Part shown: positions 17,543 through 35,468 of the stretch, one piece after another
Numbering within the stretch: the first letter of the stretch is position 1
Layout: every line of letters begins with the position of its first letter
Assembly (NCBI GenBank): GCA_963703955.1
Contig: CAVPGK010000015.1
Coordinates: 143,528 to 207,527, forward strand
Origin: Nitrospirota bacterium
GTDB taxonomy: Bacteria > Nitrospirota > Nitrospiria > Nitrospirales > Nitrospiraceae
Length of the DNA stretch: 64,000 bases
Direction of reading: 5' to 3'
The notes under the pieces: generated by a model
Told to the model about the DNA's origin: nothing
The model's database searches: none
Seen by the model: the letters and a program-made list of their open reading frames with translations, nothing else
Translations under genes and position numbers: made by a program

Positions 17543-17629
17543 TGGTGCCCGGAGGGAGGGTCGAACTCCCACTCTCTTGCGAGAACCAGATTTTGAGTCT
17601 GGCGCGTCTGCCAGTTCCGCCATCCGGGC
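17543..17629 (-). tRNA. tRNA-Leu(CAA)
   Basis: GCCCGGATGGCGGAACTGGCAGACGCG-CCAGA-CTCAAAA-TCTGG, long variable arm, GTTCGA T-loop, CCA end. Confidence 0.97.
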
Positions 17630-17664: not shown

Positions 17665-18528
17665 CTACCCCCTCCTGCGAATCCCCCGCCGGGCCTGACG
17701 CCGCAGCAGGGCGAGGGCCATGTCCCGTTCCGCCGTGCCTGTGGCGGGCGCGATCTGCAGGTCCACACAGAGGCCATGCCGATTCTCCATCAAGGCGTGG
17801 CCCGAGAAGCACAGTTTGGCTTCTTTGCCCGTGCTCTTGCGGGCCAGCAAGGCGTCCGGGTCGGTCGTGCTCTGATGGGTGGCATTGGTGCGCCGCTCGC
17901 CGTGGAAATTGACCGTGGGATTGCCCGGGTCATCCGGCGGCGCCGTCGGGGTGGGAGCGGTCTTCGGCTTGACACTCTTGAGCGAAGCCCAGGCCTCGAT
18001 CAGCGTGCCGTCGACGGTGAAGTGCTCATCCGAGAGCAGCCCCGCTCCCCGGGCATACCCCACGACGGCATCGAAGAACTTCCGTGCGGCTTCATGCGCC
18101 AGCAACCGCTCGCTGTTCTGACTGAAGGTGCTGTGATCGAACACCGGTTCATCGAGGTTCATGTCCAGAAACCAGCGGAACAGGATGTGGTACTCCAGCA
18201 TCTCACAGAAGAGCCGATGGCCTCGGATGGAGAACAACGCGATCAGCAGTTCGCCTTTCAGCAGGCGTTCCGGGGGAATCGAGGGCCGCCCACTCCGGCT
18301 GTACATCGCCTCAAACGTCGGCGCCAGCCGCTGCACCACCTGGTCAGCGATCGCTTTGATCGAGCGCAAGGGATGGGTCGCGGGCACTCGGGCTTCAGGC
18401 GAGAGGTAGCTGAACATCATGGCTTGGCCGCTGACGTATCCGCGCATCGTGCCTCCTTGGGAGTGAGTGGGCTGATGCGCCGTTATACTACGTATGTCGA
18501 GAAAGGCAAGGCCTTTTTCAACATCCTG
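17665..18528 (-). mobile_element. IS5-family element, 3'-truncated (transposase 17665-18447)
   Basis: MRG..QAMMFSYLSPEARVPATHPLR, RPSIPPERLL, FRWFLD, HFTVDGTLIEAWAS; left end CAGGATGTTGAAAAAGGC next to CTAG (18529-18532); C-terminal DDE part and right IR absent. Confidence 0.88.
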
Positions 18529-19471
18529 CTAGTGTTATATAGGTGTTAATTCCAGACGCAGCTTGCTTCAGATCGGCCTCGTCAATGGTGTTGTATCGCT
18601 TATACATCTTCTCCGACCGATGACCGATGATCGCCATGGCCGTCATCACGTCCACCCCTGCTCGTCGCATGTTCGTTGCGGCGCAGTGTCGAAGGTCATG
18701 TGGAACCGGAGGTTGGTGATCTTCGCTCGTTCCTTGGCATTCTCGAACGCCGTGCGGACGCTCTGGATAGACTCTCCGTTCCGCAGAAACACGCGATCTT
18801 GACCGAGGTATCGGACCTTATACAGGTCGCGGAAGACCTCTGTCAATTCAGGCGTCAACGGCACTTTCCGGGGCTTTCTGGCCTTGGTATCCTTGGCCGT
18901 CAGCGTGATGATTCCCCGCTTCAAATCTACCCGGTCCCAGGTCAACCTGACGATCTCCCCGTAGCGCAGTCCCAGGTGGTAGGCAACCTTGAGGATTGCC
19001 TTGAGATGGAGAGCCGCTTCCGCATACAGCCGAGTCCACTCTTCCGGCGTCAAAACCCGGTCTCGCTCGTTGTACGGGTCCGGCATGGCCACCCTTGAAG
19101 CCGGATTAGCCATGAGCAAGCCCCTTTTCACAGCCTGATACAGCATTTGTTTCAGGATCGCATGGTCCCCCATTGAGGGTCGCCATCGTTGGAGGCTTGC
19201 CGTTCTTCAGTCGCCGTTGAGCACGGTAGGCTTCAACATCGTCCGGCGTAATCTCGGTCAGGAGCTTGTCTCCAAAGAATGGAACCAGCCAACAATTGAC
19301 CTTCTCGACATGGTTTCGGTATGAAGCTAGATTCTTGACCTCTGGAATCTCTAAGTACTTCTGTCCCCAAGCTCGGAAGGTCATGAGGCCGGGCAGCTTC
19401 TCGCTCTTGATCTCACCTTTGCGACTAGCGGCACGGGCTTCGTTGTAACATCGAAGCCACTGGATTACCAA
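18518..19471 (-). pseudogene. Tyrosine recombinase/integrase, frameshifted
   Basis: HLGLRYGEI box; after removing +1 (~19170) and +2 (~18700) indels reads RFHDLRHCAATNMRRAGVD...IIGHRSEKMYKRYN; N-terminus appears truncated. Confidence 0.9.
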
Positions 19472-19523
19472 CCGTGCCTCTGGCTAATGCAAATGCAGAT
19501 TTTAGAGAAATGAGCCCCAGCAA

Positions 19524-19587
19524 TTTTTTGTCCCTCCAAGCGCGATCCCAAAATGACACCCTAACTCATGCCCAGGCGGGTGTGCCT
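19524..19587 (+). repeat. Island repeat element X, copy 1 (degenerate, class A)
   Basis: TTTTTTGTCCCTCCAAGCGCGA..AAATGACACCC..CTCATGCCC..GGGTGTGCC. Confidence 0.65.
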
Positions 19588-20038
19588 AGACGTGCAACGA
19601 ATGCCTCTGCTTTCTGAAAATCCACCACCTAGCTCACGTTTTTCAGACGATCGTTCCGGGGATGACCCTTGGTGCCGCTAGCCACTAGATCGTGTCAGCT
19701 TCATGGGGCGCGCCGTTGCCTACCATCCGCATGATGAACCCCGTCACGTATCCATTTTGATAGGAGTCCGTAGTACGGATGTTCAGCCCGCACAGACCCA
19801 TTAGAGATCGCCTATCCAAATACCGCAATAGGTCTCTTGTTAAGCACAATGTTGAATCACGTGCATTAAGCAGCTGCACTCTGGCAGGTAGCCAAAATGA
19901 ACAACCGAACGACTCCCCGAGGTGTTGCAACCCAGGCACGGCCGTCTGTCAGTTCATCTCAAATTTAATACTGTTGACTTTACTTATTTTCTGATCCATG
20001 CAAAGATTCGTTAAACTTAGACGCCTGTCTGCCCCGAA

Positions 20039-20054
20039 TGGCATGGCGGTTGCC
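20039..20054 (+). promoter_or_regulatory. Sigma54 (-24/-12) promoter motif
   Basis: TGGCATGGCGGTTGC (GG-N10-GC), 46 nt before ATG 20100; equivalent site conserved at 26690-26705. Confidence 0.6.
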
Positions 20055-20099
20055 CTAACCTAGTGACAACGAACGAAAGAATTCCAGCCCAGGAGATAT

Positions 20100-20255
20100 A
20101 TGCTGCTGAACATTGTCATCGCATGGCTGTTCTTGGACATGGTCGCTCTACTGATCGTGTGGCACGATTACCACCGGTGGTACCGCAATGTTGAACCGAT
20201 CAACGATGAGGAGAATATCCCTGAGACCTCGATAGATCGTCTCCCCGCCGCTTAG
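20100..20255 (+). CDS. 51-aa small membrane protein (copy 1)
   Basis: AGGAG RBS; MLLNIVIAWLFLDMVALLIVWHDYHRWYRNVEPINDEENIPETSIDRLPAA; paralog at 26750. Confidence 0.75.
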   Translation: MLLNIVIAWLFLDMVALLIVWHDYHRWYRNVEPINDEENIPETSIDRLPAA

Positions 20256-20276
20256 CCCTCAGGTCTTGATACAGTT

Positions 20277-20310
20277 CCCCTTTTTCCCCATCCAGCGCGA
20301 GGCGAAAAAG
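20277..20310 (+). repeat. Island repeat element X, copy 2 (5' part only)
   Basis: CCCCTTTTTCCCCATCCAGCGCGAGGCGAAAA, then an abrupt junction. Confidence 0.65.
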
Positions 20311-20609
20311 ATCTCTGTCCCTTAATAGAGCGTCCACTCGCGAAGGGCAAGCATAGTTGCCATGGGCTGATGTCCGCCTTCACTTCCGTCACCGTCGCAC
20401 TGTTAGACCCATGGGCCGCCTATTAACGGGGGATACTGGGAACTATGATCCGAAGCTCATTTCAGGCGTCTTGATAACTCGAAACCTATTGTTCGCAAAA
20501 GGTATAATTCACGGAGCCACCTTCTTTAAAGTGACACATAGCTATTCACTCAGTTCGCCACATTGGCTAGATCGTTTCGGGATCTTGAAGAAAGGATAAA
20601 GGAGGTTGT

Positions 20610-21086
20610 ATGGCTCACAAAAAACTTGTTATGGAACACGATAAGAGAATTGCACTTGTCGCTCACGACAATAAAAAACGGGACTTGGTGGAATGGGCCA
20701 GGTATAACCGCGATCTTTTGGCACACCACAAAGTGTATGCGACAGGCACCACGGGCGAGCTTCTGGAAAGGGAACTGGGGTTCAAAATCACGAGATTGCA
20801 AAGCGGCCCTTTGGGCGGGGATCAGCAAATCGGGGCCAAGATTGTCGATGACGAGATCAATTTTCTCATCTTTTTCTGGGATCCGCTCGAACCTATGCCA
20901 CATGACCCCGATGTCAAGGCACTCTTGCGCATGGCCGTGGTGTGGAATATTCCCATTGCCTGCAATCGGGCTTCAGCTGATTTCATGATCTCCTCTCCTC
21001 TCATGGATGGCGTGTATGATCGTCTGGTACCCGATTATGAGGGCTATCGCTCTCGGAGCATCGACAGGGATGACCGAGCACGCTGA
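20610..21086 (+). CDS. mgsA: Methylglyoxal synthase
   Basis: IALVAHDNKK, ATGTTG, SGPLGGDQQIG, FFWDPLEPMPHDPDVKALLR; GGAGG RBS. Confidence 0.97.
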   Translation: MAHKKLVMEHDKRIALVAHDNKKRDLVEWARYNRDLLAHHKVYATGTTGELLERELGFKITRLQSGPLGGDQQIGAKIVDDEINFLIFFWDPLEPMPHDPDVKALLRMAVVWNIPIACNRASADFMISSPLMDGVYDRLVPDYEGYRSRSIDRDDRAR

Positions 21087-21437
21087 GGCGCTAATCACCA
21101 TTTCCTGGAGTAAGATGGTCCTTGAGAGGGCTAGGCTGTCACTCGAACATATTTACGGTCCGCTCAAGCCGCCAGCACCTCAGCTCAGCGGCACGTGTAC
21201 ATGGCGACCTTGAGCAGAAGGCAGCGGAGGTGAGTCGATGCGAAAGGATGACCGCGCAGGGTCTTCCTTGAGCCGGCCAGACAGTGCACTGGCGTTATTG
21301 CGGGGTTACCGCATATGATCCGCCTGCCTCCGTATAACGATGTCCCGACTTTCTCGTCAAGGCGTGTGGTGTGCTGGGGAAGTGTGAAGGCGACCGCTAT
21401 CGGTGCCGATGTTGGGCAGTGATCGGTTTTGATTTCC

Positions 21438-21662
21438 TTATTGACAAGCGATGACCTCGCCTTCCTTTCCGCACTCAATGCATGTGCCTTGCTCAAAATA
21501 CATTCCCCTCTGATTCATCAAGGTAGAAACTTCCTCAGACAGCAAGGACGGCTTTTCCGCGTCGGTCATCCCGACTTTTAGTTTGATAAAACACTTAAGG
21601 CAAAGACTTGGCTCTTTCGATTCTTCCAGAAAGTCTTCTACTAAGTAGTTCATCTTCCCCAC
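21438..21662 (-). CDS. Small Cys-rich hypothetical protein
   Basis: CLKC...CIEC; start could be 21653. Confidence 0.5.
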   Translation of the reverse strand: MGKMNYLVEDFLEESKEPSLCLKCFIKLKVGMTDAEKPSLLSEEVSTLMNQRGMYFEQGTCIECGKEGEVIACQ

Positions 21663-21696
21663 ATGCGGACTGTTTGCCCGGCTTGCGCCTATCCTC

Positions 21697-21936
21697 TTAG
21701 CCTATTGCGACTAGGAACACCTTGTCGTTGTCCTTCTGTGACGTAAGTTTTCCTGTGTTTGGACAGGTAAGCACGTTAGCTCCGATGTTCGCTAAAATAG
21801 CTGGTAGTGCTTTGCCTGCGTATGTAGCACCGATGCTCGCTCCAGTTAAGGGACCATCCTCCATGGGTAAGACGAGTCGCATCGGATGGACCTCCGAGCA
21901 CTCGTTGCAAAAGAAGTAAAATGAGTACGTGGACAT
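21697..21936 (-). CDS. Small putative metal-binding hypothetical protein
   Basis: CNECSEVH...CPNTG; AAGGA RBS; 3' end duplicated at 21963-22022. Confidence 0.65.
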   Translation of the reverse strand: MSTYSFYFFCNECSEVHPMRLVLPMEDGPLTGASIGATYAGKALPAILANIGANVLTCPNTGKLTSQKDNDKVFLVAIG

Positions 21937-22938
21937 GGTTCCTTCAGCCCTCCCTCCGCTCTCTAGCCTATTGCTACCAAGAACACCTTGTCGTACTCCT
22001 TCTGTGATGTGCGTTTTCCTGTCTCGATTCCCCTCGGCCCACCGCTCGGTTCGGCTCGTTGTCGGTGAACCAACAAAGAGACCAGAAGCGGCCGACTCTC
22101 ACGAGCAGTGTGGGCGTCAGGAGCTATGACGTGGGTAAAGAGAAAGGGAACCGACGAGAATCAGAGGCGAAGCACGGTGGTTTTCAGCAGCACGTCGAGC
22201 GGAGGGCCCTTTTGGAAGACGTAATCAGGCAGATGCTGGTCTGGTACTGGTCCGTCGAACAAAAGAGAGAGTTGGGTTGTGTCCGCTAAGTCGAATGTAT
22301 GATGATACTTCAGGGGCTGTAGTTCGGGGGAAGCTGGGAGGTCGGTCAGATACTAGCTGTTGTTCAAAAGTACGTCACTGATAATCCGAATGAGTGGCAC
22401 AGGCAGATGCCGGATATTATGTTCAGGGCGCTCAGCGACGCATGTAAAAAGGAATAGAAATACTTTTGGAGAAGAATCGTTTGACACAGGTCCTCATCGC
22501 GCGTAGCATCTATCATGACGTGCTAAGCCTCGCTGGCTGTCCTGTCTTTCGCGCTTTCTGATTCATTCCCGCGCGACCGATTCCCCAGTCTCCGCCGCTT
22601 TCTACGCCAAAGTCTCCCTGCGATTCGTTGTCTTCAACGTGCATCGGCCTTTACGCTGATCAGATGTGGCCGAGATTCAGAGAAAGGGAGGGGAGCGGTA
22701 TGTATCCGGAATTAATTCTGCTGGGACTGGTGTGCCTGATGTGGGGCGCGACAGTAGTATGGACTTCCTTTATTGAGAAGAAGCAATAAGTGTGGTCGCC
22801 GTTCCCACAGTGGGATCGAAGGGTTACTAGTTGAAGGAGCAGGCTGCACAATCCTGACCTAGACCCATGATTATCCACAACGCCGCGTTGGGCGCATTGT
22901 CCACCTTCCTGAGAATAGAGGAGGAATAGGAATAGACC

Positions 22939-23133
22939 ATGGCGACTTGTCCAGAATGTAACAGGAATAGTCTGGAGTTTAGCGAGATCAGGAAGGCCGC
23001 GTGGTGTCTGTATACCGACTGCGAGTTCAGTCAGCCGGTGAAAAGCCACGAGGAATACATTCGAGAATTTGAGCCCCCGGCCGAAGTACCTCGGAAACAA
23101 AATGAAAATATCAAGGCGGCAGTTATCCCCTGA
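22939..23133 (+). CDS. Small Zn-ribbon hypothetical protein
   Basis: MATCPECN...WCLYTDC; GAGGAGG upstream. Confidence 0.6.
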   Translation: MATCPECNRNSLEFSEIRKAAWCLYTDCEFSQPVKSHEEYIREFEPPAEVPRKQNENIKAAVIP

Positions 23134-23387
23134 CATGCCCAGGCACTCTGCCCACGTACTAGCTGACCCGACGTAATAAAAAGAGAAGTGAAGGGCAGGC
23201 ATGAAACAACTGAATGAAGCGTATGGTCGTGGAGCATTGGCAATTCTATGGTCAGTGCTGCCACTCTTATGGAAGGCTTTAATGCGCTCACGAGCATATT
23301 TGCATACCTGGCTTCCCCTCGTACTTGATCCAGTTACCTTAGCTCTAGTCGCATGTTATTGTTGGCCAGAGCGAAGGAAGGGTCGCC

Positions 23388-23540
23388 ATGCGGTATAGCG
23401 ATTGGATGTTGAGTCAGGGTGTCAAACCGAACACCACCCATAGCAAAGGAATAAGACCAATTCTAATGTCTGCTCTCTTTCTACTTCTGATCATCCTGGC
23501 AGGTATCTTGATTGCCATCGGCGCGTTCAGCGGATATTGA
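23388..23540 (+). CDS. 50-aa small protein with C-terminal TM helix
   Basis: Hand translation MRYSDWMLSQGVKPNTTHSKGIRPILMSALFLLLIILAGILIAIGAFSGY; AAGGAAGG upstream. Confidence 0.5.
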   Translation: MRYSDWMLSQGVKPNTTHSKGIRPILMSALFLLLIILAGILIAIGAFSGY

Positions 23541-23625
23541 CTGAATTTCGTGGCAGACATTAAGGGAACGACCATAAGATCTGCTATCACTCTGTTAGAA
23601 GGCACATATGTTCTTTCATTGGGTG

Positions 23626-23749
23626 CCCCTTTTGCCCTCCCTGCGCGAGGCGAAAAGGGGACCCAAGCTGATGCCCGGTGGGGGGCGAACCCATCGCCAC
23701 CGATTAGACGGGATAGGTTGCGCCAGGGTTGCGGATGTGCGGACAGGTG
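23626..23749 (+). repeat. Island repeat element X, copy 3 (class A, GGTTGCG doublet)
   Basis: CCCCTTTTGCCCT..GCGCGAGGCGAAAAGGGGACCC..ATGCCCGG..GGGGG..CCCATCGCCA..GGTTGCG-N4-GGTTGCG..GCGGACAGGTG. Confidence 0.8.
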
Positions 23750-23826
23750 GCCCTCTCCTGACCGTCCTGTCTGCTGCCTCGCGTATATTTACGCGGTTGG
23801 CGTAGTGTTAGAAGGAATACCTAACC

Positions 23827-23873
23827 GACTCTTAATCAGCGGGCCGCAGGTTCGATCCCTGCACGGCCCACCA
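23827..23873 (+). other. 3'-half fragment of tRNA-Lys(CTT), att-site remnant
   Basis: GA-CTCTTAA-TCAGCGGGCCGCAGGTTCGATCCCTGCACGGCCCACCA: anticodon loop, T arm and CCA present; no D arm or 5' acceptor strand. Confidence 0.85.
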
Positions 23874-23912
23874 ATTTTTCATAGCAGTCCTTTTCTAGCC
23901 GATGTTCTTCCA

Positions 23913-25460
23913 TTATAGAGAAGAATGCGTTGCACTTATCGGAAAGAAAGGTCTTGCCTGGACACCAGGAAGTTCAACTCCGAGGCAGAAAGCGATGGTA
24001 GGGGCGAAGCTCATAATCGAAACGGGTTCCGTGAGCTGCGCGGGCAAGATCGAAGGTCCAGTAGCGAAAAAAATCCCTTCGGATTTATGATCTCCCGTCC
24101 GGCCGCCCAGATACTTCCCTTCTATTGTGCCGATCTTCGGTGAATAAATTGAGGAAATGGGGGCCTCTCTATTCCACTCTACCATCAGGTCGGGGAGATC
24201 GTCGATGCACCGCCCACTGAAGAGGTCGGTTGTCTTGAGCACTCGCTGCACCACAGGTTTCCCTGTCTCCACATTGACAAGCATCAAGAGGTCTCGAGCG
24301 AGTTCCTCACACAGTTGATCGTAATCGGGACCGCGATGGACGAAGCCATAGGGTTCACGGCCAACTAGGTTGATCCGAATGCCACCGTACACATCGTTAT
24401 TGGGGATCTGAAAAAAACGTTGGTTGGCCAACTCATCACTTGCCGGCAATCCATGGCCTGAGCCAATACGAGCCCGAACGGTAGTGAGAATGGGCTTGAG
24501 GGCTTGCCGGATAATCGAAGGTGTATGTTCCCAACACCGCCGGAGGATGTTTCCTGTCCTCTTCATTATCTTTCTACTCCGGGCGCTTTCAAGGCGACGG
24601 AGCACTTCTTCAAGGAGGAACGTCCCATCGTAATGTGGCCCCATACCGTGACTTGCGACCACGAAGACCGTCGTGTCCTCCCCAATTCGTTTGAGGAGTT
24701 GACCAACAGCCGCATCAATGGCGATGTAGACCTGCTCGATCGGGTCACCTAGAGCAGCAGTCACTTCTGGATCATGTCGTGGGTGGGTTGCATCATGTAG
24801 ATGCCAACACTGATGGCCTACGCAGTGGCTTTCACTGAACACTGCGAGAAAGAAATCCCAATTGCTTTGATCAAGAAAATATTGAACAAGGTCTAGTTTC
24901 ATCCTGACTCTGGTGAGCAAGGCATCACGAAGGCAAGTAAATTCAGGCATCCCGCGCTGTTGTGAAGCATCGCACGTTCCTATTAATGGGTCTCTCCCAA
25001 AGCGTGATGCGATCTGTGAAGCTAAGACAGGAGGCCAGGTACAGAAATCGCCTTCGGGATCATGGCCTGTCCAGTCAACCACGTGAATCCCGTTGATATT
25101 CTCGCTGGGAAAGGTCTTTGGAACGTCTATTACAGCCACTCGATATCCCGCTCGGCTGAGCACATTCCAAAACGGCTCCTTCTTGACATTTCTTGGAATG
25201 AATCTGATATTGCTGTATGAGCCGGTGATGATCTGGTCAAAGCAATAGCGTCCATGCTCAGCAGGGGACACTCCAGTGTAAAAGGAAGGCCAGATCGCCC
25301 CGACAAAAAGGCCAGAAGGGCTGGTAGTGATGCCCCAGGTAGCCCTGGTGAGGAGAGACTGAAACGTAGGGAGCCGCCCTTCGCGAGCCCACTGTAAAAG
25401 GAGGTCCTTGTCAAGGGCATCTAAACCAATACACACAACTTTGGGAGAGTGAAAACTCAT
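23913..25460 (-). CDS. Alkaline phosphatase superfamily (nucleotide pyrophosphatase/phosphodiesterase-like) protein
   Basis: VVCIGLDA, WPSFYTG..PAEHG, HCVGHQCW, VVASHGM, TGDHKSEG. Confidence 0.88.
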   Translation of the reverse strand: MSFHSPKVVCIGLDALDKDLLLQWAREGRLPTFQSLLTRATWGITTSPSGLFVGAIWPSFYTGVSPAEHGRYCFDQIITGSYSNIRFIPRNVKKEPFWNVLSRAGYRVAVIDVPKTFPSENINGIHVVDWTGHDPEGDFCTWPPVLASQIASRFGRDPLIGTCDASQQRGMPEFTCLRDALLTRVRMKLDLVQYFLDQSNWDFFLAVFSESHCVGHQCWHLHDATHPRHDPEVTAALGDPIEQVYIAIDAAVGQLLKRIGEDTTVFVVASHGMGPHYDGTFLLEEVLRRLESARSRKIMKRTGNILRRCWEHTPSIIRQALKPILTTVRARIGSGHGLPASDELANQRFFQIPNNDVYGGIRINLVGREPYGFVHRGPDYDQLCEELARDLLMLVNVETGKPVVQRVLKTTDLFSGRCIDDLPDLMVEWNREAPISSIYSPKIGTIEGKYLGGRTGDHKSEGIFFATGPSILPAQLTEPVSIMSFAPTIAFCLGVELPGVQARPFFPISATHSSL

Positions 25461-25955
25461 AAGTCCCTCTCTATCCCCTACTCGGTTGGTCTTTCGTCTC
25501 AGTGTGGTTCCCTTCCTTCATCATGGGCAGACACAACCTCCGGCAAGACGGCTGATTTTAACCAAAAACTCACATAAAAGAGATATCCCCCTTTCGAAGC
25601 AGGCACCCGAAGAGCACTCCCCTCTGACCGATTGTTAACTAGCAGATGTGCTTTTCGATCTTTATTGACCGCCTATGGAACATGCTGAAGCGCGTCTGGG
25701 CGCATTCCTGGAGAGGGCGGACGACCGTCGGATAACATCGCCTCAGAAGACGGACCCCCCTTTTTCTAATTTCCCAAAAAATTCTCTTCATACCTTTACC
25801 GTGACCCTGTATGCCTAGCTACCTTACCTGTGCCTGACGACCACCTTAGCTGGCGGAACAAGGGTGCCACCGGGGTAGTGTTAATACGGTGTTAGCGAGA
25901 GAGACAAATCAAGGAAATGGTACAGGGAGACAAGCGATTCTTTATTTGATTGACG

Positions 25956-26027
25956 CCCCCCCCTTTTTGTAACCGTGCGCATCGCCGGGTCCCATCTCAA
26001 GTCCAGCCCCGGCGGGGGGTGTGCCCA
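25956..26027 (+). repeat. Island repeat element X, copy 4 (class B)
   Basis: CCCCCCCCTTTTTG..GCGCATCGCCGGGTCCCAT..GCCCCGGCGGGGGGTGTGCCCA. Confidence 0.75.
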
Positions 26028-26749
26028 CACGTGCAACGAATGCCTCTCCTTTCTGAAAATCCACACCCCCTAGCTCACTTTTTTCAGACGATCGTTCTGG
26101 GGATGAGCTTCGGTGCCGGTAGCACCGAGATCGTGTCTGCTTCATTGGGCGCACCCGTTGTCACAGTCGCCATGATGAACCCCGCATGTATCCATCTTGA
26201 CCGACCTGTATCCATCCAGATAACTCACCACAAGCTGGCCTTGGCCCGTGACGGCATAATAACCTGTCCCGTTGCGGGCTTCTGTCTTCATCTCCTGTTC
26301 GAATATGACGGCACGCTCGTTGCTCATCGCTCCCATCTAGAAACCATCAAGCAAGGCAACGTCATCTGTGGAGCGTATGATGCCAATTGTATTTGTCCTG
26401 GCTGCACTCTGTATCTTTGTGGTCTGGGAACTGGTCCACGAGAAATTATAGTGGAGTCGGCAGGGAACCCATCGAGTAGGGCCCAGGCCGGGGGAAGGGC
26501 ATGCCCATCTGGTTCTGTCTCAAAACTGATTCTTTGTATCGCAACGGACACATTGCGGGGATCTCTGTTGAGCAAGCACATCAAGCACCGCTTCCACTCA
26601 GTTCACCCGTCAATCAGGCCTGCGATGGAATCACCGAGTAACAACGCCCATTTCGGAAGGGACATCAACTCGCTCAGCAGGAGACACAAAGGCATGAGCA
26701 TGGCTACGTGTAAACTACAGGTCAAACCTCTCTCTCCTCGAGGAGTAAC

Positions 26750-26902
26750 ATGCTCAACATCGTAATCGCATGGCTGATCTTGGACATTGTGGCTGTACTG
26801 ATGGTGTTGCACGATTACCACCGGTGGCACCGCAATGTTGAACCGATCAACGATGAGGAGAATATCCCTGAGACCCCGATAGATCGTCTCCCCGCTGCTT
26901 AG
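26750..26902 (+). CDS. 50-aa small membrane protein (copy 2)
   Basis: AGGAG RBS; MLNIVIAWLILDIVAVLMVLHDYHRWHRNVEPINDEENIPETPIDRLPAA. Confidence 0.75.
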   Translation: MLNIVIAWLILDIVAVLMVLHDYHRWHRNVEPINDEENIPETPIDRLPAA

Positions 26903-26925
26903 CCCTCAGCTCTCAACCCTGAGTA

Positions 26926-27050
26926 CCCCTTTTTCCCTTCCAGCGCGAGACGGAAATGGGACCCATGCTCATGCCGGTAGGGGGGTGTGCCCATCGCCAT
27001 CGGATAGGGCTAGGTAGGTTGCGCCTGGGTTGCGGAATTGCGGACAGGTG
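26926..27050 (+). repeat. Island repeat element X, copy 5 (class A, GGTTGCG doublet)
   Basis: CCCCTTTTTCCCTTCCAGCGCGAGACGGAAATGGGACCCATGCTCATGCCGGTAGGGGGGTGTGCCCATCGCCA..GGTTGCG-N4-GGTTGCG..GCGGACAGGTG. Confidence 0.85.
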
Positions 27051-27264
27051 AACTTCCGTCTCATACGGACCTTTACTCATGTTCCTTGAGTGAATGCGCT
27101 CAACATGACGAGCGTACGCCACCGTCAGATTAACGTCGTACCCTTACATCTTCGGATTGCTCGATCATCCGAATGGCTAATACACGTCGCCCTTGGATTC
27201 ACGTACTGTTCTCGACAACGTACTTGTGAACCACGGAGAGCGATGTGATGAGAGGGAGAGTCCT

Positions 27265-27462
27265 ATGAAGGTAATGATCACCGTCGATTTCAGCGTCGAG
27301 GAATGCCGTGCCATCGCCGATGCCCACGGTGATCGGGCTCCCGCGCCCTATGGACGCGTCCAAGACTGGATGTCCAGCACGATCCTGAGTGCGCTCGACA
27401 ACCTTGTTGCCGCCTACAATCTGAAGAACAAGGGCACCCTTCCACAGAACCCCGCTGCGTAA
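27265..27462 (+). CDS. Small hypothetical protein
   Basis: GAGGGAG RBS, MKVMITVDFSVEECRAIA... Confidence 0.55.
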   Translation: MKVMITVDFSVEECRAIADAHGDRAPAPYGRVQDWMSSTILSALDNLVAAYNLKNKGTLPQNPAA

Positions 27463-27600
27463 GACACGCCTGGGGCTTTGGGTTGAGCCCGGTCCCATCC
27501 CACCTTTTGACAATCCCCTGCCATCCCTCATAGGCGAAGGCTGACGTTTCGACGTGGATCAATAGGGAAAGCGCCATCACACCGTGCGTTCTACCAAGCT

Positions 27601-27942
27601 CTACTCCCCGCCCACCTGTGTGTCAGGGCAGCGCCAGCGAGTGACGATCTCCGTCCCTTGATAGAGAGCCCACTCGGTGAATGGCAAGCAGAGTTGCCGT
27701 GGGCTAGTGTCCGCCTTCGCTGCCGTCACCCCTCCTCCCACTGTCAGATGATCCACCGCCAGCTCAAACTGCGGGAGGTGTGCAGCGGTGAAAAAGAGAC
27801 TATAGGGGCTGCGGCCTTTGGCTCTGAAGCATTGCCACCGGACCGAAAAGCGCCATTCGCCCCGATCAGAGCGGACCTGGTCAATAGTGGCGACAGTACC
27901 CGCCGGAATGTCATCGAACGCGACGAGGGCACGCACGGTCAC
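27601..27942 (-). CDS. Hypothetical protein; 3' portion duplicated elsewhere in the island
   Basis: C-terminus ALYQGTEIVTRWRCPDTQVGGE recurs at 30097-30167; internal part recurs at 20311-20420. Confidence 0.55.
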   Translation of the reverse strand: MTVRALVAFDDIPAGTVATIDQVRSDRGEWRFSVRWQCFRAKGRSPYSLFFTAAHLPQFELAVDHLTVGGGVTAAKADTSPRQLCLPFTEWALYQGTEIVTRWRCPDTQVGGE

Positions 27943-28205
27943 CCCGTAGGCGATTTGATCTTGAGAGCCGATTGCCTATTTTGGCGGCCTTCATGACCGA
28001 CCACCCAGATCGCCTCGACGAACTGCCGCCTCAGCCGGGAGGGTTACGACCTCAGTCCGATTGTGGGGATTCATGGAGAAGCGGATAGTGGCAGAGAGCC
28101 CGCTGCGCGGAGATTGGGAGGCATGTCCGGCGGATTGATATTATGGTCTTCTGCAGAAGCCCGAATACCAGTGGCGAGCCGGCGTGCCGCCGGGGGTACG
28201 ATCCC

Positions 28206-28583
28206 ATGCCCCTGATTATCTGTAGCGGCGTGATCCTGCTTCTTGTTGCCCGGAGCCATGCCGTCGCACAGAGCTTTACTGACAATGCCCCGCTCACGAC
28301 GTTTCTGTTCGGTCGTTCGAGTGTTCCGACGATCCAACTCACGTCGCCTGTCTCGCCCATTGGTCCAATCACCTATACGGACCCCGTCACCACGACGGTG
28401 CTCCGACTCCCTGGTGAGTTTCGCTGGTGGCAGACGTGGGAGGGGCATCCATTCGCGTTCCGCTTGGGCCTGGGGTTTTCTGGAGGCGAGACGCGTGACG
28501 TCACTCGCCTCATATTGGACCAGCCGGCGGCGCACGGTTTCGCGCCCAATGAAGTCCACGTCGGAGTTTGGATTCCATTTTGA
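28206..28583 (+). CDS. Secreted hypothetical protein
   Basis: Signal peptide (..SHAVAQ); C-terminal VGVWIPF resembles a beta-barrel terminal strand. Confidence 0.5.
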   Translation: MPLIICSGVILLLVARSHAVAQSFTDNAPLTTFLFGRSSVPTIQLTSPVSPIGPITYTDPVTTTVLRLPGEFRWWQTWEGHPFAFRLGLGFSGGETRDVTRLILDQPAAHGFAPNEVHVGVWIPF

Positions 28584-28820
28584 TGGCGGACCACCTGGAA
28601 TGCCCCCGGCTAACCGTGTCGGTACCCTGAAAGAGTTGGCGTTGAACCAGATCCGTTCCCCTGGAGGGCCTGCATGTCTTTGCGAACTCTAAGGCTGAGG
28701 TGATAAAGAACTTCTATCTCGGGGCGGTGCAAGAATTCTTTCGTGTTCGAAGCTGGCTTAGATCCACGATCGTGATGGATCTGTCTAGGAGGTCGACCCA
28801 TTACTGCCCCCACCACGTTC

Positions 28821-29057
28821 GTGTTGGAACCCACGCGAGAAGTAACTTCTACATGGGCTTGCTCGCCCAAACCGCTGGACATCAATACCGCGTCAGCCGA
28901 TCAACTCAAAGCCCTGCCCGGCGTCGGTGAGGCCTACTCAGAGAAGATCATCAAGGGGCGACCGTACAAGCGAAAGGATGAGCTAGTGCAGAAGAAGGTG
29001 ATCCCACAAGCGACCTATGACAAGATCAAAGATCAGATCGTGGCGAAGCAGAAGTAA
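28821..29057 (+). CDS. Helix-hairpin-helix (ComEA-like) DNA-binding protein, possibly 5'-truncated
   Basis: [31 protein letters not shown]. Confidence 0.8.
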
Positions 29058-29075
29058 AGTCGGTCTGACCTTGAG

Positions 29076-29312
29076 TTAACAGCGAGTCGTGTATTGACAA
29101 TTAGAATATGGGGGAAGTCCACTTTGCGCTGGGTTGCCGGCGCGGTCTGGTGGCCCATACTGCTGATGGCGGACATCGGAGCCGCCATACGGAGAGGCTC
29201 CGTAGGAAGGAGTCTCGGGTTCTTGTCGTGGACGCGTGCCGCCATCCGCGCAGCCCACCAGAAAGAGTGCCATCACGCCGATGCAAGGGAGAAAAGCCAA
29301 TTGTGTTCGCAT
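29076..29312 (-). CDS. Small lipoprotein
   Basis: AAGGAG RBS; lipobox LVGC. Confidence 0.6.
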   Translation of the reverse strand: MRTQLAFLPCIGVMALFLVGCADGGTRPRQEPETPSYGASPYGGSDVRHQQYGPPDRAGNPAQSGLPPYSNCQYTTRC

Positions 29313-29621
29313 GCGTAGGCTCCTTTGGTTAGCCGTGGCTCAATGACAGAGCCCAAATCATACGCCTAGAGGCCTCATCATTACCAGCCGAAAGGTGGTA
29401 CCTATTTTCTTGATGTAACAGACATGGATGACTGGACAATACCGCTGCCCCGAATCGGGGGTTTATTGCTTTTGTCTGGTCTCAAGCACCTTTTTGTAGT
29501 TTTAGAAAAATTCCATTATCCAAACACTGTATGCCTCTGCACCCTACCTGTGCCGCGAAGACCACCTTGCTAGTGAGACAAAGGCGCCACCGGATAGTTG
29601 CTTTATAGACTGTAGAGGTGG

Positions 29622-29729
29622 CCATTTTGCCGTCCACGGCGCATCGCCAGGTCCCATCGCAAGCGCAGCCCCGGTGGGGGGTGTGACCATCACCTTCGAT
29701 ACTGCGATGTAGGTTGCGGCTGGGTTGCG
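29622..29729 (+). repeat. Island repeat element X, copy 6 (class B, GGTTGCG doublet)
   Basis: CCATTTTGCC..GCGCATCGCCAGGTCCCAT..GCCCCGGTGGGGGGTGTGACCATC..GGTTGCG-N4-GGTTGCG. Confidence 0.8.
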
Positions 29730-29932
29730 TTGGGGAGTGCCAGAAACCTATCACGTGAGGCAACTAAGGTATCATGTCCATTGCGGAAACCCGCCGACCA
29801 TGATACCTGTCCACATCGTGCTGGTGCGTTAGACGACCTCTACGGAATAGCCCCATCCAGTATTGCCCCCAGCAAAGTGAGTAGGTAACCAAAAGCGGCC
29901 ACATTGTGAGCGGCAGAGGCCGGGCGGACCGA

Positions 29933-29998
29933 CCTTTTGCCCTTGGGGCGCGAGGCGGAAATGGGACCAACGCTTAAGCCGGTGGAGGGTGTGCCCAT
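29933..29998 (+). repeat. Island repeat element X, copy 7 (class A)
   Basis: CCTTTTGCCCTT..GCGCGAGGCGGAAATGGGACCAACGCTTAAGCCGGTGGAGGGTGTGCCCAT. Confidence 0.82.
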
Positions 29999-30552
29999 GC
30001 GAGGCGGCAGAGGCGGCAGATGATTAAGTAGCGCCTGTGCAGACTGGTGCACAGACCAATAGGGAAAGAGCTATCACACCGTGCACTCTCCCAAGCCTAC
30101 TCCCCGCCCACCTGTGCTTCAGGATAGCACCAGCGAGTGATGACCTCTGTGCCTTGATAGAGTGCCTTGCCTAGACTCGTTCTCCGGTCTATCACGCGCC
30201 CACCAAGGGTCTTGCGGCCCGTTTCAGGGTGGCAAGGCCGTGCGTTGTATGATGGAGGACAGTCCTTTCTGTCAGTTCTGACCCGTTCATACCGGTAGCG
30301 GCATGGTAGCAAGGATTATAAGCCATTGACGATTAACAGCATGAGAAGGTGTGCGGTTAGGGAAACCGCCGGTTTTGCTTGAGGATGTTGTGACAGCAGA
30401 AGAAAAACGGTATTGACAGCCTGAAGCCGTTTTGATAAATCTGATGAGCAAAGGCAGCTGGGAAATCAGAACAACGTCGTCCTGACCCCCAGCTCTGCTC
30501 TCGGGACAACGACGTCCTTTCGGTTCATCCACAAGCCAGGAGGACGCTCGTT

Positions 30553-30975
30553 ATGTCTCGAGGATCTGCTCGGTACACCGTCCAGAAAATCAGCGCCATC
30601 TTAATCTCGGTCTATTGTCTTAGCGGATGCGCCGTCTCGGTCCCACCGCAACTCCTCTCCAACGACGACGTGTTGCTCAAGCAGGCTCTTGCTCAGCGGG
30701 AAGCGGCTTACGCCAGGCTCACCAAAGCCATCAGCACTTATTGCAGCATCAGTCATGAGCGTTTCGCGGCGCGTCAGCAATGCATCCTTGAAAAACAGAT
30801 GGAACTCCAGGGCAAGCTACAGGGTAGAGGAGAAAACCGGAATGATCGGATCGCGATGATTCGACCCGAAGCTGTGTATGGTGAGACCGGCCCTACTCTC
30901 CAATGCGAGGGCGCAGGGTTACGCGTCACCTGCCGGAGAATAGCGCCGGCCTTGCTGGAACTGTTAATGAACTGA
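30553..30975 (+). CDS. Lipoprotein (hypothetical)
   Basis: AGGAGG RBS; lipobox LSGC. Confidence 0.7.
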   Translation: MSRGSARYTVQKISAILISVYCLSGCAVSVPPQLLSNDDVLLKQALAQREAAYARLTKAISTYCSISHERFAARQQCILEKQMELQGKLQGRGENRNDRIAMIRPEAVYGETGPTLQCEGAGLRVTCRRIAPALLELLMN

Positions 30976-31720
30976 CCATAAATAATAGGACGTGATTGCG
31001 TGGCGGATATGAACGCTGCGTTTCATGCGACGGAACCCATCCTACCCGTCGACTGTTTCCCCCTCTCTTCTAGCTAGAAACGTGTCTTAATGCAACAACC
31101 GCCACAGGCTCCAGACGGCGACTCACCTCCGTTGCTTTCTCGAAAGCGTACCGCTGAAAATTCCGCCTCCTCAATCAATTTCAGTTTGGGCAATCGTCAA
31201 CAGTGGTTAGGCCGATGCTCAAGACCTTTCCGCCGTCTTTAATGCGCCTTGCGGCGCATAGAGGCCGCTCCGTTGGTAGGGTCGTTTTCCTGTTGATTTC
31301 TGGGGGGCATGAGAGCTACTAATAATCCGTGCGCAGTGAGGACAGCCACAGTGTTTGGCGCCTATGCGGAGCCATGACAAGTGAGCAATTTTGACCAGTC
31401 CTGCAGGCGTGGAAAGGTGTACCATGTTTTTTTTAGCAAAAGGGCTTTCATGAATACAACTTTACAGGGTGCCCAATAGCGCGTCGCCTGACCCCATGAC
31501 GTTCTGAGCCACGCCGACTGCCCTATTAGTCGCGCTTCGCGACTCCTCCTGGCGCGATTGATTCTCCAGTCTCCGCCGCTTCCTACGCCAGACTCTCTTC
31601 ACAGGCGCTGTCATGCTATTCCGGTCATCAAGCTTGCACCAATTGAGCGTCCTCATACGTCTCGGTGTCAGTTAAGATAGGACTGGAAAGTGATCGCCCA
31701 AATTGAGAAAGGAGACGATT

Positions 31721-32089
31721 ATGCTACACGCAAGAGTTTCCCTTTTGGCGCTCAGCGTTGCTGTCATTGCCATGACCATTGGTGCACAGAGTTGCGCCAC
31801 CAAATCGCCAGAGACCATGTCCACAACCGGTGCTCAGGCCACCGCGACAGCTCCGGGACCGGCCATGGGAAAAAGCGACCTCATCTTCCAATACCGCGAA
31901 CAAGCGGCAGAGCTGCGCGGGATGGCGAGCCGGTTAGAGTTCGAAGCGGAAGTGTATGCTCAACGCCAAGAACAGGAGCAGGCGCAGCGGAGCCGTGATT
32001 TGGCGAAGGACATGCGGACCGCTGCCGACACAGCTGATGAACAGGCGCGCGAGTATCGCCGTCAGCTCCCGCACAATCAGGCGTACTAA
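31721..32089 (+). CDS. Lipoprotein with helical/coiled-coil body
   Basis: AAGGAG RBS; signal peptide ending AQSC. Confidence 0.75.
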   Translation: MLHARVSLLALSVAVIAMTIGAQSCATKSPETMSTTGAQATATAPGPAMGKSDLIFQYREQAAELRGMASRLEFEAEVYAQRQEQEQAQRSRDLAKDMRTAADTADEQAREYRRQLPHNQAY

Positions 32090-32310
32090 CATAAGCCGAC
32101 CGGGGCTCTCATGATCAGCTTCAACAGTAAGGGGATGACCGATATTTACTATCACTTCAGCCATCCCCTGTCGTTCACTCTTCAATCAGCGGCCCGGGCC
32201 GGCGAAGCCGGTACCGGAGGTGGAAGGGCAATAGGTCCACGCAACACGTGATCCGCGCAGAAGGTTTCCATACGAACGGTGAGGACTGAGTCAGGGCTGC
32301 GAGATAGGAG

Positions 32311-33789
32311 GTGGTCGTGATGTTTTACCAAGGGAGGTTCTTGGGTCGCCTGCTGTGTGCTATGGTCGGACTCGCCGTGTTGTCCTCCTGCATCTCGATG
32401 ACCTCGCAGCGGAAGGAGGAATCCAGGTCTCATATCAAGAAGATCCACAAGGCGGACAAAGAAGGTCCGCAGACCATCACTCTGGGACAGCTTCGTGATG
32501 AAGTCCAGCGATTCGCGTATCGGTTTGGCTCCCACGTGAATGAGCCACTGAGCATCATGGGGGGGAGTGCCCTCTCATCCAACGTACGGCAACTGCTTTA
32601 CCGAATGAAGTTCAACAATACGTGGACGGTCGTCGACATTGCCGTCGGGCCAAATCCTGAGGTTAACTTGATCGACATGCTCGTGTTCGTCACCTTGTCG
32701 CGGACGGTCCTGGAGGACTACTGGGTTCCAAAGGTCTTCGCCGAGGAGGGGATGGTTCTCGCGAAAGCGCATCGAGACATGGAGGAGGATATCTGGAGCG
32801 TCGGAGCTCGAGTCCTCGATCGGGAGCAACAGGACGAGTTACGGGGTCTGATACGGAAATGGCGGGAACAACATCCCGAGATGCGATTTGTTGGGGCCAT
32901 CCGATTCGGGAACCTTGCCTCACAATTGGGTGATTCGAGCTTAGCCGATGTGCAGAAACCCGGCGGCTTGCTGGGACAGATGCAGCAAGCGACGGAGGCC
33001 GTCGACGAGGTCCGCCTCGCATCGGAGCGGTTTATGTTTCTTATGAGGGCCATGCTGCCACTCTCGCGACTTCAGGCAGAGGCAACCCTGAGCGGAATGT
33101 TGATGGAACCCGCAATCGAGCAGACGCTCTCTAATCTGAACCGACTCACGAGGTCCACCGAACGCTACGCGGCTCTGTTAGAGCGGCTTCCCGCTGAGCG
33201 GGATGAAACCCTGACGCAGGTAAGCCGCCTCATTGCCATGGAGCGGAAAAACTTCCTTGACGAGATCGTCCCTCACGAAGATCGCCTTCAGGGCGTGCTG
33301 ACGAGCCTCCGGGAGACGCTTGTGGAAGCAAACAAATTGATTGCGTCCGTCGAGTCCCTGGCTGCCAAATATGGTCCGGCTCAGGATCAGCCACCAAACC
33401 ACGCGCTCGCGGTGGCCGAACACAAACCCTTCGATATCAAGGACTATCAGCAAACCGTCAGTGGGGTGACCGACACCGTTCGGGAAACTCAGAAGCTTGC
33501 CATAACCCTGGAGCAGATCCTGAATTCCCCGGGATGGAAAGAGCGCATGCCGGAACTGCTCGGCACCATTGCTACCGTAGGCAAAGAAGGGGAGGGTTTA
33601 GTTGATTTCTCATTTCGCCGGGCGGTCTTTCTAGCTGGGACCTCGATATTAATGCTCTTTCTCCTCGCGTTCGTCCTGGTAAGATATGCGGTCAAAAAAG
33701 TTGCCGCGATCCGCGAATCCCCGAGCGGGGTGGTCAGACAGGAAGCACCTCAAGATCGCCGATCCCATCCCAGCAAAGTTATTGGATAA
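32311..33789 (+). CDS. Large hypothetical lipoprotein with C-terminal TM helix
   Basis: 492-aa ORF, lipobox LSSC, helical repeats, hydrophobic segment near the C-terminus. Confidence 0.8.
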   Translation: MVVMFYQGRFLGRLLCAMVGLAVLSSCISMTSQRKEESRSHIKKIHKADKEGPQTITLGQLRDEVQRFAYRFGSHVNEPLSIMGGSALSSNVRQLLYRMKFNNTWTVVDIAVGPNPEVNLIDMLVFVTLSRTVLEDYWVPKVFAEEGMVLAKAHRDMEEDIWSVGARVLDREQQDELRGLIRKWREQHPEMRFVGAIRFGNLASQLGDSSLADVQKPGGLLGQMQQATEAVDEVRLASERFMFLMRAMLPLSRLQAEATLSGMLMEPAIEQTLSNLNRLTRSTERYAALLERLPAERDETLTQVSRLIAMERKNFLDEIVPHEDRLQGVLTSLRETLVEANKLIASVESLAAKYGPAQDQPPNHALAVAEHKPFDIKDYQQTVSGVTDTVRETQKLAITLEQILNSPGWKERMPELLGTIATVGKEGEGLVDFSFRRAVFLAGTSILMLFLLAFVLVRYAVKKVAAIRESPSGVVRQEAPQDRRSHPSKVIG

Positions 33790-33814
33790 CACCGAAGGAG
33801 GCGGGGGCGGACCG

Positions 33815-33882
33815 CCTTTTTGTCCTCCCAACGCGAGCCTGAAATGGGACCCACGCTCATGCCGGGGGAGGGGTGTGCCCAT
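33815..33882 (+). repeat. Island repeat element X, copy 8 (class A)
   Basis: CCTTTTTGTCCTCCCAACGCGAGCCTGAAATGGGACCCACGCTCATGCCGGGGAGGGGTGTGCCCATC. Confidence 0.85.
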
Positions 33883-34055
33883 CACAGGTGTAGTCTGTTT
33901 TGGCAAGTGTTAAATAGGTGTTAGCGAGAGCGACAAAACGGGCAGGATACCGACAAAGAGAAGCAAAGTGAGAGGAGACTTTAACTAGTCCTAGTCTTTG
34001 AATAATAAGGGGATTACCCAGGCCATCAAGGACTTGAGTAATCCCCTCTGTATCC

Positions 34056-34095
34056 ATTTTGAGTCTGGCGCGTCTGCCAGTTCCGCCATCCGGGC
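34056..34095 (-). repeat. att direct repeat: 5' half of tRNA-Leu(CAA)
   Basis: 40/40 identical to 17590-17629; identity stops just after the anticodon loop. Confidence 0.95.
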
Positions 34096-34127
34096 TTCAG
34101 CGCTTGTTGAGAACATCCCGCCGCCCT

Positions 34128-34156
34128 CTTCTAACACGATCACCCCGCATCGTCAA
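34128..34156 (-). promoter_or_regulatory. Likely native tRNA-Leu promoter
   Basis: Minus strand TTGACG-N17-TAGAAG with extended TGn, about 30 nt upstream of the tRNA 5' fragment. Confidence 0.5.
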
Positions 34157-34265
34157 TTCAGCTGCCGCCCTTTTCATTCGTCGAAGTGGCGTGATAAGAT
34201 CCCCTGCGTTGCCGTGATCCGGTTGGGCGCGCTTCGCGTAAGGTTTGCAGAGGGAGGGAGATCCA

Positions 34266-34550
34266 ATGACACAGCTTCAACAGGTCCACTGTGTAAAATG
34301 CGGAAAAGACGGTGACCCCATCACCGATCCTCTCTACTTAGGGCGGATGGAAGCCGAAATAAAGTCGAACGTCTGCAAGAGTTGCTGGAAAGAATGGGAA
34401 GGAATGAGAGTGATGGTGATCAACGAATATCAGGTGAATCTGGGTGAAGAAAGCGGCCGAGAGCTGGTCAGAAAGCAAATGCGCGCGTTTCTCAAGCTCG
34501 GGGAAACCGTGGACACCTCAAGGTTACAGCAAAACTATCGACCCCAGTGA
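34266..34550 (+). CDS. yggX: Fe(II)-trafficking / oxidative damage protection protein (YggX-like)
   Basis: VHCVKC...CKSCWKEW..MVINEYQVNL..QMRAFL. Confidence 0.8.
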   Translation: MTQLQQVHCVKCGKDGDPITDPLYLGRMEAEIKSNVCKSCWKEWEGMRVMVINEYQVNLGEESGRELVRKQMRAFLKLGETVDTSRLQQNYRPQ

Positions 34551-34586
34551 CGGCGGCGGTGCAATCCGACGCGATGAACTAAGCTC

Positions 34587-35468
34587 TTGCCTCAACCGTC
34601 TCACCAGCGGCGTCTTGTATCTGGAAATCGAAACAATCAGGAGCGCCGTTCCACTCTTCGGTTCTCCCAAGAACACAGTTCTCCCCGGCTGGCGAATCAG
34701 GTGGCCCTCATCACAGGAGCCGGCCGTGGGATCGGTCGCGCTACGGCGGAATTGTTCGCTCGGGAGGGGGCACAGGTCGTCATTTGCTCCCGGACGCGAG
34801 GCGAACTTGCGCGCGTGCTCGCTGTCATCAATACCGCGGGAGGAGAGGCCACGGGTCGGGTCGCGGACATCGGATCCGCACGGCAGGCTCAGGCACTGGT
34901 CGATCTGACCGTTCGTCGGTATGGGCGGCTTGATCTTCTGATCAACAACGCCGGCATCCTAGGACCGCGGGTGCCGATTACGGAGTATCCGCCGCGTGAC
35001 TGGGACAGCGTGCTGCGAATCAACCTCAGCGGCACCTTTTACATTTCCCGGCAGGCCGCCGCCAGAATGGTCGACCAACAGGGCGGATGTATTATCACAC
35101 TGTCCTCCTCTGTGGGCAGGATCGGCCGCGGTGCCTGGGGCGCTTATGCCGTCTCCAAATTCGGCATCGAAGGTCTGAGCCAGGTGATGGCCGATGAACT
35201 GCGGTCAGACGGCATTTGCGTCCTTACATTCAACCCCGGGGGGACACGGACCGAGATGCGCAAAGAAGCCTATCCCTCTGAAGACCCTTCCAAGCTTCGC
35301 GATCCTGCTGAAGTAGCGAAAGCACTCTTACGTCTGGTCCTTGTGTCCTCCCCCGACATTTCGGGCCGGGCCTATGACCTTGACCATCTACCGTATACCT
35401 TCTCTTCGAGTAGATGCGCAAAAGGCGTCGGATTCGTTGACAACATGCAAAGCTCAGTGATAGATTGA
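34587..35468 (+). CDS. SDR family oxidoreductase
   Basis: TGAGRGIG, NNAG, YAVSK, NPGGTRT; start uncertain. Confidence 0.92.
   Translation: MPQPSHQRRLVSGNRNNQERRSTLRFSQEHSSPRLANQVALITGAGRGIGRATAELFAREGAQVVICSRTRGELARVLAVINTAGGEATGRVADIGSARQAQALVDLTVRRYGRLDLLINNAGILGPRVPITEYPPRDWDSVLRINLSGTFYISRQAAARMVDQQGGCIITLSSSVGRIGRGAWGAYAVSKFGIEGLSQVMADELRSDGICVLTFNPGGTRTEMRKEAYPSEDPSKLRDPAEVAKALLRLVLVSSPDISGRAYDLDHLPYTFSSSRCAKGVGFVDNMQSSVID

Follow-up and report, generated by a model that had tools for sequence, protein, structure and literature searches.

What is a short non-coding motif doing when it recurs, always on one strand, between blocks of unrelated genes in a tRNA-associated island? The question is raised by a 64,000-nucleotide stretch of a Nitrospirota bacterium of the family Nitrospiraceae (assembly GCA_963703955.1, contig CAVPGK010000015.1; G000:C15:143528-207527 in our numbering, G000 being the genome under study), hereafter termed the window. 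Its lower-GC island, which stretches from tRNA-Leu(CAA) to a 40-bp repeat of that gene's 5' end (Table 1), contains an insertion sequence (IS), a frameshifted tyrosine integrase, unrelated small cargo genes and the motif, which we term X. A preliminary description had viewed the locus as a cassette or satellite-end array and X as either a recombination/capture site or a packaging signal. Here, we argue, at a probability of roughly 0.7, that X is a mimic of a helper-phage packaging signal and terminates satellite-like integrative elements, which have piled up and decayed at this site. We favor this reading because X is shared with phage DNA upstream of terminase genes, because it sits at element ends, and because no close large terminase gene (terL) or putative small terminase gene (terS) was found in the host genomes searched.

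X has a non-coding core of about 70 bp, and the island holds seven full copies and one partial copy on a single strand. Its reverse complement, corresponding to the phage terminase sense, comprises three boxes: GGCACACCC followed by a C-run, GGG(T/A)CCCA at about +27 or +32, and CAAAA at +56 to +58. An nhmmer profile of the seven full window copies recovered these with E values between 5e-19 and 4e-12 and also found the partial X2 (E 0.007), whereas its best match in the reversed genome had an E of 0.38. The eight co-oriented copies listed in the preliminary description (19524, 20277 (partial), 23626, 25956, 26926, 29622, 29933 and 33815) are thus all real and share one strand, its + strand being the complement of the terminase sense used in Table 1. 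The length of 65-125 bp given there needs correction to a core of about 70 bp, since the 125-bp extent takes in a separate arm repeat, GGTTGCG-N4-GGTTGCG. Box spacing defines two subtypes, a long one (X4, X6) and a short one (X1, X5, X7, X8), with which X3 aligns. X1/X4 and X2/X5 sit inside longer duplicated blocks of 85-88% identity, so the eight copies do not represent eight independent events. A degenerate ninth X-like fragment was seen at 26470-26509 (E about 2-5).

Searching the genome with a 16-copy profile gave 16 full X copies at E 1.4e-9 or better, seven of them in the window, and two partial ones. The earlier impression that X is absent outside the island therefore holds within the window and not genome-wide, as nine further full copies occur on six other contigs, mostly near tRNA attachment (att) sites. 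Fourteen of the 16 copies have a tRNA or att fragment no more than 10 kb away (random sites, 20.6%) and five end within 300 bp of an att fragment (random sites, 0.6%), counts in which X copies sharing one island are not independent. In eight cases a paired direct repeat, GGTTGCG or GTGTTA, follows within 80 bp; these pairs are presumably integrase arm sites. The typical place of X is beside such arm-type repeats, 120-250 bp inside the att fragment. In the window, X3 ends 131 bp from a 3'-half fragment of tRNA-Lys(CTT) and X8 170 bp from the tRNA-Leu(CAA) 5' duplicate, as had been noted for these two copies, and the same GTGTTA pair occurs at both island ends (18532 and 33907). X is confined to islands and is not scattered genome-wide in the manner of repetitive extragenic palindromic sequences or miniature inverted-repeat transposable elements (MITEs). 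Together with the elements of relatives described below, these att and arm positions support the proposal that X marks the end of integrative mini-elements accreting at tRNA loci. Several islands, including others on contigs C11, C17, C21 and C6, duplicate the 5' half of the tRNA and not the 3' half (Leu, Ser, Cys, Gly, Pro).

The link to phages came from two metagenome X loci, L088 and L090, that are themselves phages. L088 contains X in reverse complement 600 bp ahead of a 593-aa open reading frame (ORF), itself followed by a portal-like ORF; in L090 it precedes a small ORF and then the beginning of that large ORF. The exact island pattern had no match in viral contigs, and a looser version matched one phage contig (L129). 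As an independent test set we used viral loci fetched by two back-translated terL motifs alone, blind to X; each motif returned at least 120 matches, and the phage-locus figures given here are among the matches listed. We examined 188 loci (L144-L329 plus L088 and L127, with L330-L358 left out), 187 of which encode the X-associated terL family, forming 131 clusters. The 76 test clusters, with at least 600 bp upstream of terL and with L088 and L127 excluded, comprised 393 kb of upstream and 578 kb of downstream DNA. In these, a two-box pattern matched seven times upstream in the terL sense, never upstream in antisense and never downstream. A profile of 36 island copies gave 14 upstream sense matches at 10 bits or more and none in the other three classes, and a profile of the seven window copies alone gave six and none, respectively. 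Among control profiles, the reversed one matched nothing and 15 block-shuffled ones gave 0-1 matches.

Further comparisons agree with this strand- and position-specific sharing, which supports the packaging-signal option of the preliminary description. Both box spacings are present in islands and in phages; among 18 phage copies compared, X8 is nearest to that of L158, and X4 and X6 to that of L178. In a quick terL tree of 70 rows, X scores at least 11.5 bits in eight of the nine members of one subclade (SH-aLRT 100), and the X presence label needs 11 changes overall. An unguided blastn comparison of 16 kb of phage L148 with 371 family genomes yielded six weak matches, two of them exactly on X; the X matches, in G090 and G267, reach 77% over 62 nt. 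Within the phages, X usually lies 0.1-2 kb, and up to 7 kb, upstream of putative terS, and phage contig starts show no common end at X. A phage-trained model ranks the X copies first in G000, which is not independent evidence because the island model had served to choose the phage copies it was trained on. At the start of phage contig L282 (1-70) stands an X-like copy in inverted orientation, 900 bp ahead of terL, which is either real or an assembly artefact.

The large phage ORF contains conserved Walker-type and DPH motifs (alignment A3) and has weak PHROG terL matches. Foldseek searches with its structural model returned D6E TerL (E 2.6e-16) and Sf6 TerL (E 1.8e-10), and by its predicted fold the protein is a terminase. 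The closest cultured terminases, at 24% identity, belong to Arthrobacter podophages (Jasmine/Adat). The suggested likeness of X to lambda cosQ/cosN accordingly seems superficial. Stretches of Jasmine, Shocker and MW202795 contain no X. Directly before terL, 52 loci encode a conserved helical protein of about 170 aa, the putative TerS, for which PHROG, Foldseek and VIA searches gave no clear family or fold and which the Atlas places in unnamed viral clusters, with helix-turn-helix (HTH) and T5 small-terminase clusters below 0.9. Among the 371 family genomes we found no close terL, the one match being a distant phage-like contig (G049:C1) lacking X, and no match to the putative-terS profile in a search that included no positive control genome. 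As close relatives of either gene were not found, the helper is not seen as a prophage, and the island elements seem to carry the cis signal only; Staphylococcus aureus pathogenicity islands (SaPIs) encode their own TerS. G000 itself has almost no matches to phage proteins. Three genomes of the family Nitrospiraceae have a 64-bp gene start and a short repeated motif in common with L148. Together with the Cys-rich cargo protein of the window, 56% identical to an ORF of family phage L193 (Table 1), such shared short DNA may link the phage host, indirectly, to the Nitrospira lineage. Repeats of ACATTGGACA in L148 (8687-8727), about 300 bp upstream of its X-like motif, match AT-rich intergenic repeats in G358 and G139 (L365, L367) and possibly represent a shared host regulator site.

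A sequence-only X model matched 10 of 150 family genomes, eight once two coding matches were dropped; the two removed from the 12 family matches (L036, L038) fall within coding sequence that we take to be SecA-like. In a class-wide sample, the model matched 4 of 53 family genomes and 1 of 97 others, that one weakly. A pattern search gave 56 metagenome loci. The profile scores in 24 of them, and 10 loci show a tRNA fragment 120-250 bp past X; the 32 that do not score were treated as chance. Among 11 genome-collection loci, three are good X matches with Nitrospiraceae titles, and the remaining eight, with titles of other phyla and weak scores, were likewise attributed to chance.

Fuller elements in the relatives G125 and G108, and in part G090, follow the order tRNA, integrase, HTH gene, primase/helicase, second tyrosine recombinase, cargo and X. 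They combine an integrase, att sites and a replication module without a full virion gene set, and in G125 and G108 X stands at the far end behind variable cargo. Cargo differs between relatives' elements, so the invariance that would have spoken against the preliminary description is absent; encoded in this cargo are chlorite dismutase, cytochromes, error-prone polymerases and proteins with TIR domains. Near-identical X-terminated tRNA-Ser islands occur in two genera (L114-L115 in G092, L117 in G061) with imuB/dnaE2-type polymerase genes, the G092 island also encoding a relaxase and chlorite dismutase. G317, a complete genome from another genus, contains 15 near-uniform X copies in 10 stretches fetched around known matches, and the five copies in tRNA-integrase islands are all directed at the tRNA/integrase. 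Locus L066 encodes, at 763-1323, a terS-like gene (phrog_51, E 2e-5) after a tyrosine recombinase, across a tRNA-Lys att from X, so that some neighboring elements may carry their own terS. Locus L110 (153-3349), in which X occurs together with an AAA_25 primase-helicase and a gene of the putative-terS family, is a phage or a terS-bearing satellite.

From these data we infer packaging itself and propose the following course of events. Small elements with an integrase, an HTH excisionase-like gene, a primase-helicase, a second recombinase, cargo and X would integrate at tRNA genes; upon infection they would excise, replicate and be packaged from X by the TerS/TerL of the helper. Repeated integrations and deletions would then stack element ends, each consisting of X (or the element Y described below) and an arm repeat, to give the observed array. 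If packaging follows the terL sense, as in the P22 rule, it would run leftward from all eight copies, which face the broken integrase and tRNA-Leu, through the island, the tRNA and then haem-synthesis genes. When started on the chromosome, it would take along all of the 16-kb island and flanking DNA despite the dead integrase. Viral contigs of the phage family reach about 50 kb, some three times the island. As a tentative extension, which we consider rather doubtful, some Nitrospira lineages might keep at least 15 inward-pointing packaging signals in tRNA islands after loss of integrase and primase; these would form a host-resident transduction system in which lytic infection packages cargo and flanking chromosome without a prophage or active satellite, and the lineage-specific X variant would name the helper clade.

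Several observations weigh against a packaging-signal mimic. The phage motif is judged to be a packaging signal by its position, and the putative TerS is proposed from synteny and an all-helical model only. In the phages X lies 0.5-8 kb before terL and twice behind the putative terS start (L088, L303), and 62 of the 76 test phages have no match at 10 bits, many of them with short upstream DNA or diverged variants. Jasmine has 1330-bp direct terminal repeats (PMC5513430) and no X, so packaging may not be simple headful. The lack of a close terL in family genomes belongs on this side too, as does the absence of CRISPR spacer matches for the one phage tested (L148). On the island side, G317 also has opposed X copies in two stretches (L381, L386), the X-bearing island of G092 encodes a MobA/VirD2-like relaxase, and no primase or relaxase of the relatives' elements matches G000 (82% complete), for which reason the elements here look inactive.

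Other roles for X have to be weighed against this evidence. A phage late promoter or regulator-binding site, carried by the elements to sense helper infection while packaging uses another signal, would suit the position of X upstream of the putative terS-terL operon, in its sense and in many cases close to where leftward genes give way to rightward ones. Yet no conserved gene follows X in the islands in the phage sense, the next ORFs being unrelated cargo in either orientation, X keeps a fixed place adjoining the att arm, and the two phages with X behind the putative terS start fit poorly; we regard this role as unlikely. A replication-origin or terminal-repeat processing site, serving helper-driven replication or concatemer resolution instead of terminase loading, could be imagined from Jasmine, whose long direct terminal repeats lie between leftward and rightward genes, the region of X in several phages. 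The fuller elements, however, encode a primase-helicase of their own, far from X, and X tracks the terminase clade, which makes this option quite improbable. In terminal-repeat phages such processing is coupled to packaging, and the origin explanation would then merge with a packaging signal.

Diverged X copies and broken integrases might also suggest functionless relics of decayed temperate phages of the X-associated family that once integrated at tRNAs. This is very hard to reconcile with the 371 family genomes lacking close terL or putative terS, with the near absence of phage protein matches in G000, and with the location of X some 20 bp away from att arms, an arrangement that the phages did not show. 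Finally, a repeated, co-oriented motif that separates unrelated cargo invites interpretation as a recombination or cassette site, an origin of transfer (oriT), a MITE or a small RNA, and the relaxase in G092 could be cited for oriT. Integron attC sites are hairpin-forming and end in GTTRRRY after each gene; the X alignment has no such ends, as the preliminary description had recognized, and RNAalifold found no consensus pairs among 16 copies on the + strand, so we rejected the cassette half of its proposal while the satellite-end half stands. No terminal inverted repeats are evident in the alignment, an Rfam search of 17000-34600 at E up to 5 found tRNA only, and the recombination features are the neighboring arm repeats and tRNA cores instead of X. 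X is also confined to islands, and as this group of explanations leaves the strand- and position-specific match upstream of phage terminases unaccounted for, we give it very little weight.

Table 1. Features of the tRNA-Leu island; window coordinates, with X strands in the phage terminase sense.
Feature	Position	Strand	Basis or remark
tRNA-Leu(CAA)	17543..17629	-	att core = its 5' 40 bp, 17590-17629
Insertion sequence, DUF772 transposase, between att core and arm repeat	17678..18533	-	PF05598
Arm-type direct repeat GTGTTA-N5-GTGTTA, integrase-side end (putative role)	18532..18548	+	same repeat at 25878, 33907
Tyrosine integrase, frameshift-broken	18560..19471	-	PF00589, PF14659
X1	19520..19593	-	profile search
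X2, partial (CAAAA-box end only)	20278..20308	-	profile search, alignment
Cargo: methylglyoxal synthase (MGS domain)	20610..21086	+	domain search
Cargo: 79-aa Cys-rich protein	21697..21936	-	56% identical to ORF of phage locus L193
X3	23621..23696	-	profile search
Arm-type direct repeat GGTTGCG-N4-GGTTGCG	23716..23733	+	further copies 27017-27034, 29712-29729
tRNA-Lys(CTT) positions 30-76, 100% identical	23827..23873	+	att remnant
Cargo: type I phosphodiesterase/nucleotide pyrophosphatase	23913..25460	-	domain search
Y1, ~110-bp non-coding end element, then GTGTTA arm repeat 25878-25894	25760..25909	+	repeat search
X4, long-spacing subtype	25961..26032	-	profile search, box spacing
X5	26921..26997	-	profile search, box spacing
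Cargo: helix-hairpin-helix protein	28821..29057	+	domain search
Y2	29490..29615	+	repeat search
X6, long-spacing subtype	29616..29693	-	profile search, box spacing
X7	29929..30002	-	profile search, box spacing
Cargo: lipoprotein-like ORF of 492 aa	32311..33789	+	ORF list; no Pfam family passed the cut-off
X8, copy retaining full end context (X - arm - att)	33811..33886	-	profile search
Arm-type direct repeat GTGTTA-N5-GTGTTA, distal end	33907..33923	+	repeat comparison
Distal att core: tRNA-Leu(CAA) positions 1-40	34056..34095	-	identical duplicate

Within the window, the remains of elements consist of the broken integrase, which aligns in three tblastn pieces to an intact relative, and att sites only. 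The tRNA-Lys att remnant is from an element of another tRNA site; its presence within a tRNA-Leu island, together with the duplicated blocks, shows mixing between islands. Twenty sequencing runs contained 9-23% of the words of 25000-34500, which we do not count as evidence. The IS has a 99.8% copy on contig C6. A non-coding repeat of about 110 bp unrelated to X occurs at 22478-22616 and 31444-31629 and at eight further places on C17 and C13, mostly C17, and a 64-aa Cys-rich ORF (22928-23088) has 89-92% identical copies on C4, C6 and C17. Element Y, also of about 110 bp, has 20 copies in G000, two of them in the window. It is more abundant and better conserved than X and takes the place that X has ahead of arm repeats and att cores; it had no match in the phage loci compared, nor in viral contigs by pattern. 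Y might serve another helper as its signal, or act as an oriT.

Packaging motifs have been named as a missing link for pairing satellites with helpers (PMC11389934), and few Nitrospira phage references exist, according to the available text of PMC11849493. In the literature covered, which excluded subscription journals, we found no description of Nitrospira phage satellites or of islands linked to phage terminases. X connects the variable islands of a nitrifier lineage with a large uncultured phage family through a single 70-bp motif. It thereby supplies a candidate packaging signal for that family and a way to predict Nitrospira phages, and suggests a testable route of gene flow into Nitrospira islands.

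Among known systems, the closest parallel is the phage-inducible chromosomal island-like element (PLE) of Vibrio cholerae, in which a non-coding stretch resembles the pac site of the helper ICP1 (89 bp at 71%, 14 bp identical) and is required for transduction (PMC11417361). X similarly has about 62-70 bp of up to 77% likeness to phage DNA, known here from sequence comparison. PLE has one site near its origin and the packaging proteins Gpi, GpsA and GpsB, whereas X occurs in many copies and adjoins the att arm, and we found no packaging gene. PICMIs (phage-inducible chromosomal minimalist islands) of Vibrionaceae resemble X elements as minimal integrase/excision/primase elements that have no terS or capsid genes and a virulent helper (PMC10803314). 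They insert at fis, once per genome, and the available text of that source identifies no cos/pac site, whereas X elements insert at many tRNAs, accumulate and display a candidate signal; X elements are not PICMIs, since they use tRNA att sites and not fis. With the tycheposons of Prochlorococcus (10.1101/2020.12.28.424599), X islands share a plan in which elements with integrase, primase and cargo target tRNAs and, by integrating one after another, leave behind partial tRNAs and remnants. Cargo tycheposons are linked to vesicles, those resembling phage-inducible chromosomal islands (PICIs) carry terS or capsid genes, and the available text describes no cis packaging motif. Lateral cotransduction by SaPIs and PICIs, in which in-situ packaging from a pac site moves the element and flanking chromosome (PMC12829572), is predicted here too. 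SaPIs use temperate helpers. Pac mimicry is established for PLE, P4, SaPIbov5 and EfCIV583 (PMC11417361); what appear to be new are the X motif, the phage family and the host lineage.

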